Source: a virus (Duplodnaviria > Caudoviricetes). Taken from it: DNA of 64,000 bases. Position 1 is the stretch's first letter. Each line of letters opens with the position of its first letter. A model generated the notes under the pieces. It had not been told where the DNA came from, ran no database searches, and saw only the letters and a list, made by a program, of their open reading frames with translations. The stretch covers positions 1 through 64,000 of the IMG/VR virus record IMGVR_UViG_3300035208_003131, one strand, 5' to 3'. Shown here one piece after another: positions 7,109-63,733 of the stretch. A program made the position numbers and the translations under genes.

Positions 7109-8035
7109 ATGCCAGTAGTACATTCATTAGAAAAAACAATGGAAAATCGTGTAACCGAATTCTATGGAAAATCTAGTATATATAGACCAAATAAATTCCT
7201 TGTTGGATTTTATGGTGAATACGTAGACCAAGCAATTAAAAAATTAGAAAGTGATACTAGAACCGAACGTAACCCAAATAATCAATATAATGGAACTAGT
7301 AAACTTCAACTAGGAACCGACATTCATACATCCGCACTGAATCAATGGAAAACTAATCATTATTTTAAAGAAGACTCACAGGTTGAACTTAAATGGGGAT
7401 GTTCAGAAGCAATTATACCATCAATACAACCAACAACTGAAAGTGGATTATGTATTGATTCAATTAAAAATATTAAATATCCTATGATACGTGACGCTGG
7501 TGGATTACAATCAGTTGAAATTGAAATTACAGAAGATAGACATTTAATGTTCTACCAATTTTTCAATGCATTAATAAATCGATTTTTCACACCACAAATA
7601 TTAAAAGCACGTAGTTCAGTTCAAAAATTAGGTATGTATATTGCGGTGTTACAGGAAGATTTTGTTATACCACAAGGTGTACAAGAAAATGGAATCCAAC
7701 GTGATCAAGATTTAGATGCAATTGTAAGTCAAATTTTTGAATTTAACTCAATTGTACCTAAAGGAATTCCAAATCTTACATTTAATAATGATATCAAAAC
7801 TCCTCTTAAATACAGCATTAGATTTGACGCACCAAACGCATTTCAAGGTTCATTTAAAACTAGTTTCAAAGGACTTAGAAATAATACAAGTGATACTCAA
7901 TTCATGACTGGATTTGATTCAAATTCACTGGACGCAACCGGACAGGAGTATATTAAATCTAATTTTGAAGTTAGTACAAACTCTCTAATGACTACACAAA
8001 ATGGTGTGTATGAAAAAACACTTAAAGCTGAGTAA
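7109..8035 (+). CDS. Putative tail-tube-fold/baseplate protein (gp54-like)
   Basis: FEFNSIVPKGIPNLTFNND...KYSIRFD resembles tail-tube family C-termini; follows the gp3-like gene. Confidence 0.4.
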   Translation: MPVVHSLEKTMENRVTEFYGKSSIYRPNKFLVGFYGEYVDQAIKKLESDTRTERNPNNQYNGTSKLQLGTDIHTSALNQWKTNHYFKEDSQVELKWGCSEAIIPSIQPTTESGLCIDSIKNIKYPMIRDAGGLQSVEIEITEDRHLMFYQFFNALINRFFTPQILKARSSVQKLGMYIAVLQEDFVIPQGVQENGIQRDQDLDAIVSQIFEFNSIVPKGIPNLTFNNDIKTPLKYSIRFDAPNAFQGSFKTSFKGLRNNTSDTQFMTGFDSNSLDATGQEYIKSNFEVSTNSLMTTQNGVYEKTLKAE

Positions 8036-8930
8036 AAAAAGCTAAATTAAGTGGTTTAATTTTATGAATCTTACTTAATTTATCACATTGTTTCATAAAA
8101 AAATCTTTATGTGCAATGTTATGAGTTGTTTCAGGTCGTGGATGATTAATATGAAGTACACCTGATTTAATATCACCAACTGTACTTATATAGATTCGAC
8201 AGAACCATGCTTCTATGCCAAGAAAACTATCTTCACCACCCCAAGCACCTAAAAATGCACTATGAAATAATTCTGATCGTTCATAATAACGTCGATTAAA
8301 GTTTTTAATTCTATTAACAGTTTTAATATTCATAGCAATGTTACATGACCATACAATAAGACATTGTTTAATTAACTCATTATTATTAATCACAATACCA
8401 TCAGGGCGAAACATATTTAAATGTGAGATTGATGATATAACTTCACGTTGATCCATCCATCTATATCGTTGTTCTTTACGTCTACCAATAGATAATACAG
8501 GAAGATCAACATTACATTTTTTGATATGAGCTTGGACTAAATCTGGTTCAGGTATACAATCACCATCAATAAATATAAATATATCACAATCATCATGGAT
8601 TGCAGCTTCAACGCCAACATTACGAGCCATACCAGCTAGAAAAATATTTCCCCCTGATTTTCTCGTAATATTATCAGGTACACCCGAAATTATTCTAATT
8701 TGAATGTTTAAATCTGGATATTTATTATTTTCAGTCTTGATAGCTTCTAAACAATCCCAATCTTCATTCTCAGGCTCTCCGGATCCTCTCAGAGGTCCTA
8801 TATCCATTTTAGGGCGATCTACTATGACATAAACCACATCAGGGCGTACAGACTGCTTAGTAAGGCCCATTAGAACCTTAGGCCAATATTTAGATTGATT
8901 ATGTAGAGGAATAATGACTGATGTTTTCAT
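8022..8930 (-). CDS. Glycosyltransferase, GT2/GT7C type
   Basis: SVIIPLHN, ARNVG, FIDGD (DxD), WGGED, HINH. Confidence 0.9.
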   Translation of the reverse strand: MKTSVIIPLHNQSKYWPKVLMGLTKQSVRPDVVYVIVDRPKMDIGPLRGSGEPENEDWDCLEAIKTENNKYPDLNIQIRIISGVPDNITRKSGGNIFLAGMARNVGVEAAIHDDCDIFIFIDGDCIPEPDLVQAHIKKCNVDLPVLSIGRRKEQRYRWMDQREVISSISHLNMFRPDGIVINNNELIKQCLIVWSCNIAMNIKTVNRIKNFNRRYYERSELFHSAFLGAWGGEDSFLGIEAWFCRIYISTVGDIKSGVLHINHPRPETTHNIAHKDFFMKQCDKLSKIHKIKPLNLAFFTQL

Positions 8931-24423: not shown

Positions 24424-24897
24424 ATGGAGTTTTTTATTATGGCAGTCCCTAGACCACCAATTAATATTGAAAGTAACAAAATTAAAGAACTACGTGATTG
24501 GATTAATCAGTACTTAAATGCCGAAGATACAAACGGAGAACTTGATCTTAATAGAGCACAGCGTAACATTAATTATTGTGCTGGTGATTTCTACACAAAT
24601 CTTAACGGAATTTACATGCAAGAAGAATTTAAATTACGACAACTCGAAAGTGATCTATCTAAAATTAAAGCAATACAATATGATAAAATCAAACGATTCA
24701 CCGATTATGTAGTTGAATCCGCTGGTATAAAAATATTACTTGATGGAAATGAAGAAGTTCGTAAAAAACAACTTGAACTAGATAAACAAGAAGCCTATTT
24801 AGATTTCCTTGACCGATCACTCAAACAATTCAGTTTCTATTCAAATAAAGTAGAAATAATGTTAAAGGCTCGTGAAGCTCAAGAAAGATATGGATAA
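24424..24897 (+). CDS. uvsY: Recombination mediator UvsY-like
   Basis: Helical; KILLDGNEEV...YLDFLDRSLKQFSFYSNKVEIM follows the UvsY C-terminal pattern. Confidence 0.65.
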   Translation: MEFFIMAVPRPPINIESNKIKELRDWINQYLNAEDTNGELDLNRAQRNINYCAGDFYTNLNGIYMQEEFKLRQLESDLSKIKAIQYDKIKRFTDYVVESAGIKILLDGNEEVRKKQLELDKQEAYLDFLDRSLKQFSFYSNKVEIMLKAREAQERYG

Positions 24898-57248: not shown

Positions 57249-57902
57249 TTATCTAACACCCTCAGCATAAACAACTAAATGGTTTTTCCGAAAACATGAT
57301 ATTGCATATGTATTAGTATAGTCTTTACTTTTTAATCCACCAACCAACTTCCATTCAACTGGTCGAGTCAACATAACACCATTACCGAATCCATCACCAT
57401 TAAGTGATCTAATGATTATCCAATCATCGACAAACCATCTAATATTATCGGACGTTTTTAACTTATGTGATTTATTATTCGTACATATTGCACCTAATTT
57501 ACGCTTATAATCATATTCGATATGAATATTTAATAAATCGGAAAGCCAATTCAAACTTTCAAATGATATTAAAGGTTCTACAATCGCAACGTAATCAAAT
57601 GTATCGTTTGATTCAACTATATCATTCATCATAATAGTTGGATCAAATGTTGAATTATCGTATATAGGAATTATATCATCAAATACAGGATCAATTGCAA
57701 CTTCTGATCTTTTACTATACGACGCAATATAATTAGCAAGAAATGATTTATTAAATGATTCTCTTATTCCAGTTATAGGTATATATAATGTTGGTTGAAT
57801 ATTATTATAATTACTTCTCATAAGTTGCATCAAACATGTAGCTACCTCTTCATCATGATAATATACAGGAACTAATATTGCAATTTTATACATTACTATC
57901 AC
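57249..57902 (-). CDS. GT2-like glycosyltransferase-fold protein, divergent
   Basis: IAILVPVY; DYVAIVEP at the DxD position; GVMLTRPVEWKLVGG. Confidence 0.55.
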   Translation of the reverse strand: MIVMYKIAILVPVYYHDEEVATCLMQLMRSNYNNIQPTLYIPITGIRESFNKSFLANYIASYSKRSEVAIDPVFDDIIPIYDNSTFDPTIMMNDIVESNDTFDYVAIVEPLISFESLNWLSDLLNIHIEYDYKRKLGAICTNNKSHKLKTSDNIRWFVDDWIIIRSLNGDGFGNGVMLTRPVEWKLVGGLKSKDYTNTYAISCFRKNHLVVYAEGVR

Positions 57903-58551
57903 CTAACGGACGAGCTTTAGTTAACGGTGCATTTCTAGCCGCACGTCTACCATCATCATCATAAAAATCATTTGAATATGGATTCTCATCAAGACCAGCA
58001 ACCGCCTCTTCCAACTCAAATGATCTTTCAACTTGTTGATGGAACCGCTCAATTCGATGTTCTAAATAATCCATTGATATATCAATCATATCTTGATCAT
58101 CGATATATAACATTTCGGGATCATATAATTCATTATTAACTCTATTAATTGCAGCAGCTAAAGCTTTCTTATATGAAAACGCATATATTCCATATGCAAA
58201 CCCTTTAGAGTTGCAACATTCACCGATATGAACTACATCAGACTCTTCACCTTCAGCAAACATAGTTTCAAATACATTACCACTCGGAGTTACATCACCA
58301 CCAGTGACCATTAGATTATTATCTAACGTCAATTGGGTTGAATATGGCGTAACAAAAAATAACGCAGTATCATCAAAAATTATACAATATACAATTTCAG
58401 TATTAATTACATATTCATAATACGATGAAAACATGAATGTATATAATCCATTGTTTCCATCCACAGTTAGTCGATTAAATTCTTCTTTAAATTCTTTTTT
58501 TAACTCAACTGGATCATCATTATAAAACGCTATAATCTCATTGTCTATCAT
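57886..58551 (-). CDS. Hypothetical protein
   Basis: 221 aa in a tightly overlapping operon. Confidence 0.7.
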   Translation of the reverse strand: MIDNEIIAFYNDDPVELKKEFKEEFNRLTVDGNNGLYTFMFSSYYEYVINTEIVYCIIFDDTALFFVTPYSTQLTLDNNLMVTGGDVTPSGNVFETMFAEGEESDVVHIGECCNSKGFAYGIYAFSYKKALAAAINRVNNELYDPEMLYIDDQDMIDISMDYLEHRIERFHQQVERSFELEEAVAGLDENPYSNDFYDDDGRRAARNAPLTKARPLGDSNV

Positions 58552-58880
58552 ATTATTTTTGAAAAATATGTAAGAATATTTTGAAGAAGAACATTTTCAG
58601 TATTTTTTTCCTGGTCAAGTAAATCGACATAACGTTTCATTGCGTTAACTACTTGAGTTGGAAATTTTTCATATTCAACTACATAATCTGGATCATTTGT
58701 TATAAATGAACCATCCTTTGGATTAATAGTGATCTCATATTTTTCAGCTTCCTCAGGTGTAATTTCGATTTGCTGGTGAAATTGATCAATAGTAAAACGA
58801 AGTGATACCGTACATGGTAATTTACGACTGTACATACTAATATAATATCTATCTTCTAGTGTAAGCTTAGTGCTCATCAT
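58548..58880 (-). CDS. Hypothetical protein
   Basis: 110 aa; overlaps both neighbours. Confidence 0.7.
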   Translation of the reverse strand: MMSTKLTLEDRYYISMYSRKLPCTVSLRFTIDQFHQQIEITPEEAEKYEITINPKDGSFITNDPDYVVEYEKFPTQVVNAMKRYVDLLDQEKNTENVLLQNILTYFSKII

Positions 58881-59081: not shown

Positions 59082-60092
59082 TCAATTACCACAATTCCAT
59101 TCAAGTTCTCTAAGTTTTTCATATAATTCAATCTCGGCATCGCTTGCATCAGTTGGAACTAACACGGTAAACGTAATAAATAATGAACCATCTTTAATAC
59201 CATGCTTTTTTAATTTGAGTTTAGCCGTTGATTTAGTTCCTTTTGGTATTACCGCTTTAATAATTTTACCAAAAACATTAATTTTAATATCAGCACCAAG
59301 AACTAAATCCGAAGGTGATACATCAAACGACATATAAATATCATTACCTTTACGAATAAATTTTGAATCTTCGATAACCTCAATGTAAGCTAGAATATCG
59401 CCATTTGCACCACCATTACGACCAGCATTACCAGAACCAATAACTTTAATTAAATTACCATCTTCAACACCTGATGGTATTTTTACAGTAATATGTTTAG
59501 TTTCAGATAAAATTGTTTCACCTTTACATAAAGTACATGGTGTCTCGATTACTAATCCAGTTCCACCACAATTATTACAAATATCAACTTGAATTGAATT
59601 ATCATCTTCTATTGATGTAGCTTTATGTACCTTCCGAACAACACCTTTACCTTTACATATTGTACACTGTTTTTGTTTACTAGCTCCAGTACCATCACAT
59701 AATGAACACCGTTTTTTACGATTAACTTCTATTACTTTATCAATACCAGTAATAGAAGATTCAAATGTAATAGTAAAATTTACTCTAATATCTTGGCCTT
59801 TAATCGGAACTTTACGATTTGTTTTTTTATGAAAACTAGCCGCAGTATTACATGTACCAAATGCCTCACCCCAGCGTTTAAAATCATTACTAAATGACAT
59901 TTTATTATCATAGACTTTTTTCTTACCAGCATCACTAAGTATAGAATATGCTTCATTCACTTCTTTGAATATAGATTCAGAATTTGGATTTTTATCAGGA
60001 TGATATTTAACCGCTAATTTTTTATATGCACTTTTTATTTCAGATGTAGATGCGGACCGACTAACACCGAGTGTACTATAATGATCTTTCAT
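59082..60092 (-). CDS. dnaJ: DnaJ co-chaperone
   Basis: J-domain with HPD; CSLCDGTG, CTICKGKG, CNNCGGTG, CTLCKG; GDILAYI C-terminal domain. Confidence 0.95.
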   Translation of the reverse strand: MKDHYSTLGVSRSASTSEIKSAYKKLAVKYHPDKNPNSESIFKEVNEAYSILSDAGKKKVYDNKMSFSNDFKRWGEAFGTCNTAASFHKKTNRKVPIKGQDIRVNFTITFESSITGIDKVIEVNRKKRCSLCDGTGASKQKQCTICKGKGVVRKVHKATSIEDDNSIQVDICNNCGGTGLVIETPCTLCKGETILSETKHITVKIPSGVEDGNLIKVIGSGNAGRNGGANGDILAYIEVIEDSKFIRKGNDIYMSFDVSPSDLVLGADIKINVFGKIIKAVIPKGTKSTAKLKLKKHGIKDGSLFITFTVLVPTDASDAEIELYEKLRELEWNCGN

Positions 60093-60107: not shown

Positions 60108-60602
60108 TTATAAACCATCAAATTGTTCTCGATTTATTCCAATAAATTTATCGAGACGATCCCTAATATCAGTATGAAATAAATTAAACACAGGTATATT
60201 AAAATTTTGTGCAATTCGAATACCAAGACCTGTACCACCAGAATCACTGCCATCATGAGTATAACATATTACAAATTTAACAGGACTATTTAAATCACTA
60301 CCAAGGATAATCATTGAATTCCGACCATGTAATTTACGAGCTATAGGACTACATGCATCCCAAGTTGGATGAAAACGTGAAGCTAATTCAATTGCCTCAG
60401 TAGTTGCATGTTTAGGTCTAAAAATTTCTTTATTGTTATTATATATAACTCCGTTTTCAAACGCTGTATCCGCACCTTGAGCACCACCACTACGTAAAAT
60501 ATAATCAATGGATTCGAGTTTAGACGCAACAGATGACATCATATCAAATATGAACGACGGTGTTCGCCCTCTAGAACCTATACCAGCATAATATTTAGAC
60601 AT
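60108..60602 (-). CDS. SLOG-superfamily (DprA/YpsA-like) protein
   Basis: YAGIGSR, LRSGGAQGAD, RNSMII, GGTG..IRIA. Confidence 0.75.
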   Translation of the reverse strand: MSKYYAGIGSRGRTPSFIFDMMSSVASKLESIDYILRSGGAQGADTAFENGVIYNNNKEIFRPKHATTEAIELASRFHPTWDACSPIARKLHGRNSMIILGSDLNSPVKFVICYTHDGSDSGGTGLGIRIAQNFNIPVFNLFHTDIRDRLDKFIGINREQFDGL

Positions 60603-60611
60603 AATTTATAT

Positions 60612-61490
60612 TTATTGTAATTTACGAAAACGCTTACCAACACTACCACCTTCTTGTTCAGTGTAAGTACGCCCAAAAATTGCACCAGTCTTAACAAACC
60701 CACGAAATCCATCAGCCTCGGCTTTATCAGACCATAGATCCCAGTTATCAATTACATTGTCATGGTAATGATATAACCACATTTTAGCTTTAATTTCGTC
60801 AGGAAGTTCACGTAAACGTTCATAACTTGCATGAACGTTAGAAGGAAATAAACTAGTTTCACAATCATGAAAAATTACATCACATTCTTTTAAATAAGCA
60901 GTCATTGCATTCACAGGACAAAATTGAGTATCAGTTGTAATATAAATGCGTTCGTTGGTATCAGGATCAGTCCACATCAATCCGTATGAATTCTCAATTT
61001 TATATCGAGCTGATACATGCACAGTCTGTACCATATCAAATTTAATACCTTCCCAAATGAAATGTCCATTTTCCTGCACTGGATTTACATCAAAATATGT
61101 ATGTAATTGAGCATCTTCAGTTTCAAGTCCACGAAGCCCACCCTGAAGACTATCACTCCATAGATCACGAGCAAGTCCAGAAGCAAACGATTGATTATCA
61201 TCTTGTATAATATATTGACCTTGAATGAACATTTTAGGTCTTGGAATGGTTGGATTAAAAAAAGTACAAAATGCAAGAGCTTCAAGTCCACCAACATGAT
61301 CAGCATGAATATGACTAATATAAACAGCATCAATATCAACTTCACTTAATCCCATCTCTTCATTTAAAGCCAATGGTGCAAAACTACCACAATCAATCAT
61401 TAACCATTTTTTGTTTTGTCTAATTAAAAAATTAGATTGCCAATTCTTTTTTGTAAAAGCATTTCCACTCCCAAGCGTATACAATTCCAT
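60612..61490 (-). CDS. MBL-fold phosphodiesterase, Apyc1-like (anti-Pycsar)
   Basis: GSGNAFTKK, IDCG, HIHADHVGGLE, LWSDSLQGGL, TVHV, TTDT, FHDC, VHAS, HYHDN in the order recalled for Apyc1. Confidence 0.85.
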   Translation of the reverse strand: MELYTLGSGNAFTKKNWQSNFLIRQNKKWLMIDCGSFAPLALNEEMGLSEVDIDAVYISHIHADHVGGLEALAFCTFFNPTIPRPKMFIQGQYIIQDDNQSFASGLARDLWSDSLQGGLRGLETEDAQLHTYFDVNPVQENGHFIWEGIKFDMVQTVHVSARYKIENSYGLMWTDPDTNERIYITTDTQFCPVNAMTAYLKECDVIFHDCETSLFPSNVHASYERLRELPDEIKAKMWLYHYHDNVIDNWDLWSDKAEADGFRGFVKTGAIFGRTYTEQEGGSVGKRFRKLQ

Positions 61491-61585
61491 AATACATACC
61501 TTTATTTATTATTTATAATACATATAATATAGAATTAAATTAGTACATGTAAACAAATTAAATCTATATAATATTAAAAATGTGA

Positions 61586-62629
61586 TTAACTATACATAGA
61601 CCTAAAAAATTCTACAATTAATACCTCTTCATCAGTCATATTCTCAATACGATCATCTATAAGATCAATGATTTGTTCAAGAAACCCCAATCCATCAGTA
61701 TTAACCACAGCCTGTAAAATCTCCTTTAATCCAATTTCACCATCAGTTGACGTAATCGCATAAACAGTTGTATCAATTGCTATACTTCCGGTACCTATTT
61801 TTAAATTTACATTAAAATTAAGCCTACCAGCAGCATCATACTCACGTACAATGGACTCCAATGGATTAGATTTACCCGCAATTACATCAGCCACATACAT
61901 CTGTAACTCATTATCACTCATTCTACGAATAGCTGCAACTCTTTTTTTGTTCCACGTGAAACATTCCGACTTAGTATATTCAACATTGTTGGTTTTTGGA
62001 TGATATAAATGTAATAATTCTACATCACCTGTACACCGTTTAATTGGTGAGACCAAACGGTTACATTTATCAACGAATGCATCATCTTCACCACCCCAAC
62101 CTTCAAATTCTTCATCGAATCCGCCTACAACATCAAATGTGGTTTTATTAAACACATTTATAAGCCCAGTGTACCGATTAATGAACAAATCTTGCTTATG
62201 AGCAGATTGTATTAATGGATTACCTTTAATATATCGTCTAGTGTGAGCCTCATTGAGGAAATTTACACGTGAGAATGGAAAATATACACTATGTTTGATT
62301 AATTCTGTGATAAAAACTGAATTTTCAATCTTAGGTATAATACAATCAGCATCAGACATCATGATTATATCATAAGTTGCATAATTTCTGATGGTTTGAT
62401 TAATAACATAAGACTTATTGAACCTATCTGACCCAACTTTAATTTGAACATGTTTTAATAATGGATGAATTGGGATCAAAACACTTTTAATATATGTACT
62501 ATCAGACAATTGTTCAGCTATAATTATCTCAAAATCTGGATAATTAAACATAAAATTATCTACAACCGCAGCCAAATTACGTCTACGATAAGAATCTTTA
62601 TCAAAAAATGGAATAATTACAGTTATCAT
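61586..62629 (-). CDS. Glycosyltransferase, GT2/GT7C (galactosyltransferase-like)
   Basis: VIIPF, FNKSYVIN, SDAD (DxD), GGFDEEFEGWGGEDD, HLYH. Confidence 0.9.
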   Translation of the reverse strand: MITVIIPFFDKDSYRRRNLAAVVDNFMFNYPDFEIIIAEQLSDSTYIKSVLIPIHPLLKHVQIKVGSDRFNKSYVINQTIRNYATYDIIMMSDADCIIPKIENSVFITELIKHSVYFPFSRVNFLNEAHTRRYIKGNPLIQSAHKQDLFINRYTGLINVFNKTTFDVVGGFDEEFEGWGGEDDAFVDKCNRLVSPIKRCTGDVELLHLYHPKTNNVEYTKSECFTWNKKRVAAIRRMSDNELQMYVADVIAGKSNPLESIVREYDAAGRLNFNVNLKIGTGSIAIDTTVYAITSTDGEIGLKEILQAVVNTDGLGFLEQIIDLIDDRIENMTDEEVLIVEFFRSMYS

Positions 62630-62663
62630 TTTACAAATATAATTAAATTTCTATATTAATGGT

Positions 62664-63107
62664 ATGATAGAACATTTTTCATCCGATTTAACTCGTTGGT
62701 TAAGTAATTTTTACCCATGTGATATCACATTTGAAGGTAAAACTTATACATCCATCGAACATGCTTACATGTCTGCAAAATCACTCGATCCAAATTGGAA
62801 ACAATTCTGTATTGAAACTGAAGATCCAAGAGCGGTAAAAAAACGTTCTCGTGAAATCAAACTAATACCTGAATGGGAAAACATAAAAGTAGATGTTATG
62901 AGAGAGTGTGTAACTCAGAAATTCTCAAAAGAACCATTCCGTAGTAAATTATTAGATACAAAAAATGAATACATTCAAGAAGGTAACTGGTGGAACGACC
63001 GATTCTGGGGAGTTGATTTAAAATCAAATCCACCAGTCGGTAAAAATATGTTAGGTATTCTAATTATGGAAGTTAGATCTAATTTAATTACGGATGAAAT
63101 ATTATAA
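62664..63107 (+). CDS. NADAR-family ADP-ribosylhydrolase
   Basis: WLSNFY, EHAYMSAK, WENIKVDVM, LLDT, EGNWWNDRFWG, GKNMLG. Confidence 0.93.
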   Translation: MIEHFSSDLTRWLSNFYPCDITFEGKTYTSIEHAYMSAKSLDPNWKQFCIETEDPRAVKKRSREIKLIPEWENIKVDVMRECVTQKFSKEPFRSKLLDTKNEYIQEGNWWNDRFWGVDLKSNPPVGKNMLGILIMEVRSNLITDEIL

Positions 63108-63323
63108 AAATCCGTCAAGTTTTTTAATCATCATATCACAATTATGAACCATACTATCATTTTCAGATTTGGAGAATTGTGATCGAAACGTTTCCATCAT
63201 ATATTTCATATGCTTCATTGAACTTTTCGCTTCACGTCGCTCTTTTTGTAACCGAGTTACTAAAGGTTCAACATCTCGTCGCTTTGCATACTTTCCAGAT
63301 TTGTTAATTTTTTCTTTAATCAT
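63102..63323 (-). CDS. Hypothetical small basic protein
   Basis: Start moved to MIKEK (GGAG SD upstream); the ORF track extends it to 63377. Confidence 0.55.
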   Translation of the reverse strand: MIKEKINKSGKYAKRRDVEPLVTRLQKERREAKSSMKHMKYMMETFRSQFSKSENDSMVHNCDMMIKKLDGFL

Positions 63324-63478
63324 AGAATCATCTCCACCACGGCGAAGAATATTTATGTTATACCAATTAATTGACATGATAATACTTCCGGTGTTAGGGC
63401 CTTCCGACCACGTTACTTAAATTGTTTATATTACAATGTTAATTCACCACATCTTCTATTATTAATGTACACTAAAAA

Positions 63479-63733
63479 TTATAAATCTAATGAATTTATA
63501 GTATATCCTTTCGATTTATAAACATCTAAATCACCATTAACCGATTCTTCAGATGCCCAATAGTAACCATAGCAGTTTTCCATTATAGTTCCACTATCAA
63601 GTTTAAATACAGGTACTTCAATTTCGATACCTAAATCATCATTTTCTACTAATTTATTTTCTTGGAATTCACCGAAGCCAATAAGTGTAACCACTTTATC
63701 TTCGACTGATTTAATTACGCCTATACGTTTCAT
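63479..63733 (-). CDS. Hypothetical protein
   Basis: 84 aa with GAGGA SD. Confidence 0.7.
   Translation of the reverse strand: MKRIGVIKSVEDKVVTLIGFGEFQENKLVENDDLGIEIEVPVFKLDSGTIMENCYGYYWASEESVNGDLDVYKSKGYTINSLDL

Follow-up and report, generated by a model that had tools for sequence, protein, structure and literature searches.

Positions 60,108 to 63,107 of a 64,000-nt stretch of viral DNA (IMG/VR record IMGVR_UViG_3300035208_003131, hereafter the window) encode a SLOG protein, an Apyc1-like protein, a glycosyltransferase (GT) and a NADAR-domain protein. We found that this block belongs to the leftward early/middle gene string of a T4-like giant phage, where swappable accessory genes lie interspersed among backbone genes of the lineage. 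The accessory block is real, and it represents a good example of a kind already known and no new system. Its SLOG protein is, according to the structural model, a minimal DprA-type Rossmann domain of the SLOG superfamily, and we tentatively favour a role for it in which it would act on DNA. The window covers the first 64 kb of a viral contig of 84,209 bp, whose CheckV completeness of ~20% marks it as part of a giant phage genome. The contig carries T4-like replication genes (UvsX-like recombinase, DnaB-like helicase, gp32-like single-stranded DNA-binding protein (SSB), primase and family-B polymerase), and we found no DNA-level similarity to cultured phages.

The SLOG gene (60108-60602, − strand, 164 aa) directly follows the gene for the putative Apyc1-like metallo-beta-lactamase (MBL)-fold phosphodiesterase (60612-61490, −, 292 aa). 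Between the TAA stop codon of the latter (60612-60614) and the SLOG ATG at 60602 lie 9 nt (ATATAAATT). The GT-A glycosyltransferase gene (61586-62629, −, 347 aa) lies upstream, and the gene for the YbiA-like NADAR-domain protein (62664-63107, +, 147 aa) is divergent from it, with 34 nt separating the two start codons. A sequence-only reading of the window had described this arrangement of four genes, including the 9-nt gap, and the open reading frames (ORFs) confirm it. The family calls are far beyond chance (phrog_768 for SLOG, PF23023 for Apyc1, PF00535/PF02709 for GT and PF08719 for NADAR) and, as that reading also held, both the Apyc1 and the NADAR family have members whose counter-defence activity was shown experimentally. 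The GC content of the block genes (0.30-0.33) equals that of the rest of the window, and composition shows no sign of recent acquisition.

We compared the block with five related viral loci (L003, L004, L005, L008 and L057). The common gene order is a 475-aa gene, the 84-aa and 91-aa ORFs, NADAR where present, GT, Apyc1 where present, SLOG, DnaJ and then ORFs of 110, 221, 217 and 261 aa. The NADAR gene is found in L003-L005 and is missing from L008 and L057. Among the five relatives the Apyc1-like gene is missing from L008, and GT and DnaJ are present and syntenic in 5/5. As NADAR and Apyc1 come and go while SLOG, GT and DnaJ stay, the latter represent the backbone of the lineage and the former are swappable. 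The slots which hold NADAR or flank SLOG are filled otherwise in some of the relatives (L057:4743-5117 (−), L008:8486-9043 (+) and L057:7419-7952 (+)), and Pfam scans left these replacement genes unmatched. The replaced slots thus point to gene-exchange hotspots inside an otherwise syntenic block, which is positioned between a polymerase-like gene and the DnaJ/baseplate genes. The idea of an anti-defence island therefore survives in part: the variable accessory slots speak for it, whereas the block as a whole belongs to a syntenic phage backbone and is not self-contained.

The SLOG protein matched phrog_768 ('DprA-like DNA recombination-mediator protein') with an E-value of 1.1e-49. Pfam and NCBIfam gave no above-threshold match (PF02481 reached 11.7 bits compared to a cut-off of 29.6) and PADLOC left the protein unmatched. 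Across the SLOG family a precomputed PF02481 match was present in a minority of the members. Because the protein lies below the PF02481 threshold we refer to it as DprA-type and not as DprA. An AlphaFold2 model built from a 36-sequence alignment reached a pLDDT of 93. In an exhaustive structural search of this model with VIA-align all 16 of the 16 PDB matches with Z ≥ 8 were SLOG-superfamily proteins. We obtained Z scores of 13.0 and 12.7 for DprA (3MAJ and 4LJK, respectively), 11.9 for ShosA, 10.2 for the SLOG domain of ThsA (7UXS) and 10.0 for the LOG enzymes 5WQ3 and 1WEK. The top Foldseek matches of the model were DprA, ThsA, MCP and TT1887. With 164 aa the protein consists of the Rossmann core alone; the accessory domains of DprA (SAM-like N-terminal domain and C-terminal winged helix) are missing.

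The single-stranded DNA (ssDNA) pocket of DprA is characterised by two motifs, G-S/T/A-R, located in the loop that follows core strand 1, and F/L/Y-x-x-R-N/D, located in the pocket helix (PMC3950713). Both are present in the window protein. The first occurs as G9-S10-R11, which HMMER pairs with IGTR of HpDprA; in an alignment of 240 SLOG family members G9 was kept in 238/240 and S, A or T at position 10 in ~235/240. The second occurs as L91-H92-G93-R94-N95, and here R94 and N/D95 were each found in 240/240, in stand-alone and fused members alike (position 95 is D in four fused members and N in the remaining alignment). The conserved pocket elements are the GSR loop, the LxxRN helix, SGGAxGxD and GGTG. 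The LOG motif PGGxGTxxE (PF03641) is reduced to G122-G123-T124-G125 plus L-G-I-R and the catalytic Glu is missing. We also considered a family-wide Zn or Cys/His catalytic site formed by H78, W81, C84 and H92. All four are invariant within the close subfamily, but W81, C84 and H92 are replaced in the fused members and the candidate was rejected. H78, D45 and E49 are kept in the fused members.

A search of 1.84 billion proteins showed the size of this family, which comprises 5,871 clusters at 50% identity. We encountered it in 1,302 of 50,697 cultured-phage records (~2.6%), including N4-like, T4-like, phi92-like and PAK_P1-like phages. The family is essentially viral; a narrow search pattern returned two loci in bacterial metagenome-assembled genomes. 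Fusions to other domains recur in the family. Among the 120 longer homologues listed there were ~40 fusions with DUF4326, ~20 with NADAR, nine with a RecJ-like DHH exonuclease, five with Macro and three with AlkB, and further partners were an SF1 helicase, HNH and PolB-exo. The two top-scoring profile matches to the window SLOG in the whole search (P0243 and P0244, both metagenomic, ~1,480 aa) contain a DprA-type SLOG, YAcAr (PF10686), SLOG cluster 4 (PF18306) and a C-terminal NADAR domain.

For the gene neighbourhoods we dereplicated the IMG/VR loci with a SLOG gene to 62 groups and scanned the direct neighbours in 61 of them. A NADAR-, DUF4326- or Macro-type gene was located within 8 kb of SLOG in 20/62 groups (17 of them outside the window lineage) and was adjacent to it in seven. 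Apyc1 was a direct neighbour in 3/61 groups, all from the window lineage, and the same holds for DnaJ (three groups, lineage-only). In other phages the direct neighbours of SLOG were often DNA or nucleotide-metabolism genes, and in the T4-like phages JSE and Tonic the gene sits amid small uncharacterised genes in plastic regions. The fusions and adjacencies with NADAR, DUF4326, Macro, RecJ-like exonuclease, AlkB and helicase place SLOG in an ADP-ribose/DNA-lesion branch and not with Pycsar. We rejected SLOG and Apyc1 as a conserved pair, given that the adjacency is restricted to one lineage and that L008 has SLOG without Apyc1; the tight spacing of the two genes is a lineage-specific feature and no argument for a functional pair.

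DprA/SLOG proteins were described in jumbo phages by Iyer et al. (PMC7824862), who placed most viral SLOGs in a YpsA-like clade and put forward a network of viral SLOG, Macro, NADAR, Nudix and DUF4326 domains which would process the ADP-ribose derivatives that host immunity produces (PMC7824862, PMC9503650). In the EVADES preprint a protein annotated as 'DprA/Smf Rossmann-fold protein', ORF83, is reported as a phage inhibitor of Salmonella Avs3 (type III Avs) (10.1101/2025.06.06.658234). According to the same source ORF83 is without the dimerisation and RecA-contact residues of DprA, amoeba viruses encode homologues of it with a fused DUF4326, and AlphaFold 3 predicts that it binds AMP via an Arg-Asn pair and a Thr; a DNA ligase, ORF55, is also listed against the nuclease-armed Avs3 (10.1101/2025.06.06.658234). 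Judged by the description of ORF83, this protein and the window SLOG very probably belong to the same family. We can therefore not present the SLOG protein as a new counter-defence candidate: phrog_768 is huge, the role has already been proposed (PMC7824862, PMC9503650) and the DprA/Smf-like ORF83 is already listed as anti-Avs3.

The Apyc1-like protein scored 105.5 bits against the Pfam Apyc1 model PF23023 (cut-off 50) and matched the solved Apyc1 structures over residues 2-248 (7U2S with E 1.7e-29, 7U2R with 1e-26 and 7T28 with 1.6e-22). The HxHxDH motif (ISHIHADHVGG) and the later His, Asp and His metal ligands are in register with 7U2S and 7U2R. Full-length identity to the SBSphiJ locus is 30.5%. 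Apyc1 of this Bacillus phage (gp147) was reportedly characterised by Hobbs et al. in 2022 as an anti-Pycsar phosphodiesterase. The NCBIfam equivalog NF041851 (cyclic nucleotide-degrading phosphodiesterase) gave 25.8 bits, compared to a cut-off of 400. A score this far under the cut-off indicates a distant relative for which equal function is not guaranteed. Judged by its sequence, the gene is a true but distant member of the Apyc1 family of metallo-beta-lactamase hydrolases. Its homologues in cultured phages come from Bacillus phages in 84/85 records and from a Xanthomonas phage in the remaining one, and the occurrence in a T4-like giant phage suggests a wider spread of Apyc1 in uncultured viruses.

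The NADAR protein, the only one on the contig, scored 80.5 bits against PF08719 (cut-off 35.1; 79.8 bits in a six-frame search) and 74.3 bits against TIGR02464 (cut-off 73.7). Its best structural relative by sequence was YbiA of E. coli (2B3W, E 1.9e-13), with NADAR 8BAU at E 8.3e-9, and in PADLOC it matched the candidate PDC-M42C. PF08010, the model for T4 gp30.3, was not among its matches at E ≤ 0.01. The NADAR subfamilies differ in a residue of the final beta strand, which is Glu in YbiA, Asp in the DarT1-linked type and His in the gp30.3 type (PMC11125620). The HMMER alignment sets the 'IQEG' of the window protein opposite the 'LVEH' strand of YbiA, with the strand placed from the alignment alone. 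The NADAR subtypes assayed so far all strip ADP-ribose off guanine in DNA, whereas protection from DarT1 in vivo is subtype-specific, and E. coli YbiA was active in vitro yet did not rescue cells from DarT1 (PMC11125620). As YbiA failed to do so, an anti-DarT activity of the window NADAR cannot be assumed. Phage NADARs (AdfN) are known to overcome DarTG1 (PMC11257639). Beyond the window, at contig positions 82947-84044 (+), we observed a 365-aa protein with an N-terminal ART-PolyVal domain (PF18760, 32.4 bits, cut-off 31.2). With this protein and a NADAR on one contig, the phage would write ADP-ribose marks besides carrying an eraser.

From the genes, folds, motifs and synteny that we observed and from the fusion and neighbourhood statistics we infer the biochemical activities of the block. 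Its genes would act independently and not as one system. The Apyc1 homologue most likely destroys cyclic-mononucleotide alarm signals of the cCMP/cUMP type, considering its homology and the retained metal ligands, and the NADAR protein most likely strips guanine in DNA of its ADP-ribose, as other NADARs do. For the SLOG protein we propose that the conserved pocket would hold a nucleobase, that the protein would bind phage DNA in single-stranded form, or a nucleotide adduct carried by such DNA, and that it would help to protect or repair replicating phage DNA after damage by a defence system, e.g. base ADP-ribosylation, alongside NADAR-type enzymes. We regard this DNA-directed role of SLOG as a possible explanation that falls somewhat short of probable. 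It is based on the retained motifs of the ssDNA pocket, on DprA as the nearest structural relative, on the DNA-acting fusion partners (RecJ, AlkB, helicase, HNH) and on the fact that NADAR and Macro act on ADP-ribosylated DNA (PMC11125620, PMC11257639). That ORF83 and the ligase ORF55 are both directed against the nuclease-armed Avs3 fits a DNA-protective role.

Several points weigh against these assignments. A free nucleotide could also occupy the SLOG pocket, for example AMP, as predicted for ORF83 in EVADES, or one of the soluble ADP-ribose derivatives proposed by Iyer et al. The partners NADAR, Macro and DUF4326 are compatible with a substrate of either type, DNA or small molecule. The exact membership of ORF83 in the SLOG family is not certain. 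JSE and Tonic carry SLOG without a Pfam-detectable NADAR, so the partnership of the two is not obligatory. The neighbourhood figures are raw counts, not set against random phage windows, and thus no statistical proof of enrichment; the fusions carry more weight. For the Apyc1 homologue, an identity of only ~30% to the assayed enzymes means that the substrate may differ.

The DNA-directed role can be taken one step further. Viral DprA-type SLOGs might recognise ssDNA on behalf of a phage pathway for DNA de-modification: their pocket would seize a damaged (e.g. ADP-ribosylated) base on replication intermediates that are single-stranded, and the base would then be passed on to NADAR, Macro, DUF4326 or AlkB erasers. 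We think it unlikely that this extended version is correct, but if true it would explain the recurrent fusions between SLOG and erasers and the stand-alone SLOG would be a previously unrecognised cofactor of anti-DarT-type counter-defence.

Alternatively, the stand-alone SLOG protein could bind or cleave soluble NAD+-derived signals (cADPR isomers), either as a sponge or as an N-glycosidase directed against Thoeris-like TIR systems. The SLOG fold itself is compatible with this, the ThsA SLOG with bound 3'cADPR was matched at Z 10.2, and there are recurrent fusions and adjacencies with NADAR, Macro and DUF4326 as well as a published prediction of Iyer et al. (PMC9503650). On the other hand, the protein is closer to DprA (Z 13.0) than to ThsA or LOG, it lacks the LOG catalytic Glu while the ssDNA motifs of DprA are kept, the fusions with RecJ-like exonuclease, AlkB, helicase, HNH and PolB-exo point to DNA, and for the NADAR and Macro partners an action on DNA adducts is now established (PMC11125620, PMC11257639). 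We therefore consider this explanation rather doubtful, and the sponge or hydrolase put forward in the sequence-only reading is retained as one of several readings and not as the leading one.

Less probable still, in our view quite unlikely, is that SLOG is an ORF83-type protein, either a nucleotide phosphoribohydrolase or an AMP binder, which counters STAND/Avs-type defences via nucleotide metabolism. The window protein has R94-N95 and T124 in the motifs equivalent to those with which the anti-Avs3 protein ORF83 is predicted to bind AMP. DUF4326 fusions are common to the ORF83 homologues and the phrog_768 family, and the LOG enzymes 5WQ3 and 1WEK were matched at Z 10.0. The AMP activity, however, is an AlphaFold 3 prediction only, the homology to ORF83 is a presumed one, and the catalytic Glu of LOG is missing.

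SLOG could also be a housekeeping recombination mediator or an extra ssDNA-binding protein that loads UvsX in the way DprA loads RecA, as the PHROG annotation has it and as was also suggested by Iyer et al. (PMC7824862). The motifs and the fold of DprA are present, a UvsX-like recombinase, a gp32-like SSB and a DnaB-like helicase are encoded a few kb away, and the neighbours of SLOG in other phages, often DNA or nucleotide-metabolism genes, would be in line with such a function. We nevertheless judge it improbable. In JSE the SLOG gene, located in a plastic region, coexists with a canonical UvsY (E 2.5e-53), which argues against a simple replacement of UvsY. The window contig itself has a weak UvsY-like ORF of 157 aa at 24424-24897 (+), a sub-threshold match (E 0.005, 13.3 bits). 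Furthermore the extra domains of DprA are missing, ORF83 is without the residues for dimerisation and RecA contact, and the patchy distribution and the NADAR and Macro fusions suit an accessory role better. As an observation in its own right, the ORF at 24424-24897 may be a divergent recombination mediator of the phage.

It is highly improbable that NADAR, and perhaps SLOG, undo or limit the marks of the phage's own ADP-ribosyltransferases (ARTs) and not those of host defence, since, despite the ART-PolyVal protein on the same contig and the NADAR-ART associations which Iyer et al. noted in viruses (PMC9503650), the ART gene is part of the late/structural arm, ~20 kb distant, the close relatives L008 and L057 have no NADAR, and the phage NADARs assayed act on host DarT1 (PMC11257639).

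The remaining genes of the region are backbone genes and small ORFs. The GT matched PF02709 (E 5.6e-11), PF00535 (E 3e-9) and phrog_1721 'galactosyl transferase' (E 7.6e-17), and the contig encodes at least one further GT2-type, Pfam-confirmed gene (8022-8930). It is an ordinary GT-A enzyme. The sequence-only reading had included it in a nucleotide-signalling cluster, but nothing ties it to nucleotide signalling. We also rejected hmC-type DNA modification as its role, which is unsupported: a thymidylate-synthase-family gene is absent from the contig, i.e. from ~20% of the genome. Directly downstream of SLOG a full-length DnaJ of 336 aa is encoded at 59082-60092 (−), with J domain (PF00226, E 6e-24), Zn-finger (PF00684, E 7e-10) and C-terminal domain (PF01556, E 2e-30), as well as a match to phrog_14336 (E 8e-73). 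This DnaJ is type-I-like with a CxxCxGxG zinc finger; a full-length Hsp40 co-chaperone is uncommon in phages.

In the 95-nt spacer between GT and Apyc1 we observed sigma-70-like hexamers (TTTACA-16/18-TATATT/TATTAT at 61513-61553, −) and, ~20 nt upstream of the Apyc1-like start, a TATAAATA box. Apyc1, SLOG and DnaJ may thus have their own promoter in this spacer, where the hexamers are not significant at 30% GC. Consensus promoter and terminator scans gave site counts that were not above those of shuffled-sequence controls.

Four small ORFs on the − strand flank the block, and scans against Pfam, PHROG, NCBIfam and PADLOC gave no informative family match for any of them. Upstream, the 91-aa ORF (63102-63377) is kept in L003, L004, L005 and L008 with 30-71% identity and the 84-aa ORF (63479-63733) in all five related loci with 33-73% identity. 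Downstream of DnaJ, the 221-aa ORF (57886-58551) is kept in the five related loci; its ESM Atlas model was poor (pLDDT 0.38) and yielded no usable match. The 110-aa ORF (58548-58880) is well conserved, with 50-61% identity across the five related loci and 36 invariant residues. Its AlphaFold2 model is mixed alpha/beta with a pLDDT of 89, and we found no convincing structural match for it: the best PDB match had a Z of 5.1, and the best viral Foldseek match, which led to uncharacterised proteins, an E of 1.2e-3. The protein is a candidate for an orphan fold and always occurs two genes after DnaJ. We rejected an NMN-adenylyltransferase fragment as its identity, as the NCBIfam match is weak (E 0.018) and there is neither a HIGH-type motif nor a structural match. 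All four small ORFs had been proposed as further counter-defence candidates, and it is by their position only that they qualify as such.

The locus itself adds little. It offers a clean natural case of a T4-like giant phage in which SLOG is accompanied by a NADAR and by an Apyc1 homologue, and it adds a case of Apyc1 homologues outside the Bacillus phages, which prevail among the cultured examples. The biochemical activity of SLOG is a general question which has already been posed in the literature. The phage SLOG family is among the largest phage accessory families with an activity that is only predicted, and it occurs in phages that include therapeutic ones of Klebsiella, Pseudomonas, Acinetobacter and E. 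coli. Deciding whether its target is DNA or a small signal would give a function to thousands of genes and clarify how phages survive NAD+/ADP-ribose-based immunity.

Finally, we compared the proteins of the block with the known systems they resemble. The Apyc1-like protein shares with Apyc1 (SBSphiJ gp147; 7T28, 7U2R, 7U2S) the MBL fold, the HxHxDH motif with the downstream ligands and a full-length alignment, and differs from the prototype by its identity of ~30%, an insert of 13 residues and a C-terminal tail of 46 residues, as well as by the phage that carries it, a T4-like giant phage as opposed to the Bacillus phages that account for nearly all cultured homologues. The window NADAR is, like AdfN (T4 gp30.3) and other phage NADARs, a stand-alone, phage-encoded domain that is variably present among relatives; it is nearest to YbiA (2B3W) and gives no match to the gp30.3 model PF08010. 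The SLOG protein has the fold (Z 11.9-13.0) and the G-S-R, L-x-x-R-N and SGxAxGxD motifs of the DprA/Smf ssDNA-binding domain (H. pylori 4LJK/4LJR; PF02481) and of ShosA (8ZVA). It differs from these proteins in being the core only, in its sub-threshold PF02481 score, in a family-specific H78-P-x-W insert and in being essentially viral. The SLOG domain of ThsA binds 3'cADPR and is coupled to a SIR2 effector, whereas the window SLOG is without an effector domain and its fold is closer to DprA. With ORF83 it has in common the annotation, the structural neighbours (LOG 5WQ3/1WEK and DprA 3UQZ), the pocket with Arg-Asn and Thr, and the DUF4326-fused homologues. The closest agreement is with the viral stand-alone SLOGs of Iyer et al. 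and PHROG 768, with which it shares the sequence family, the stand-alone form, the large phage, a NADAR nearby and the fusions with NADAR, Macro and DUF4326 among its relatives. Nothing essential separates the window SLOG from these proteins, apart from its position directly after an Apyc1 homologue and the fact that by structure and motifs it is nearest to DprA.

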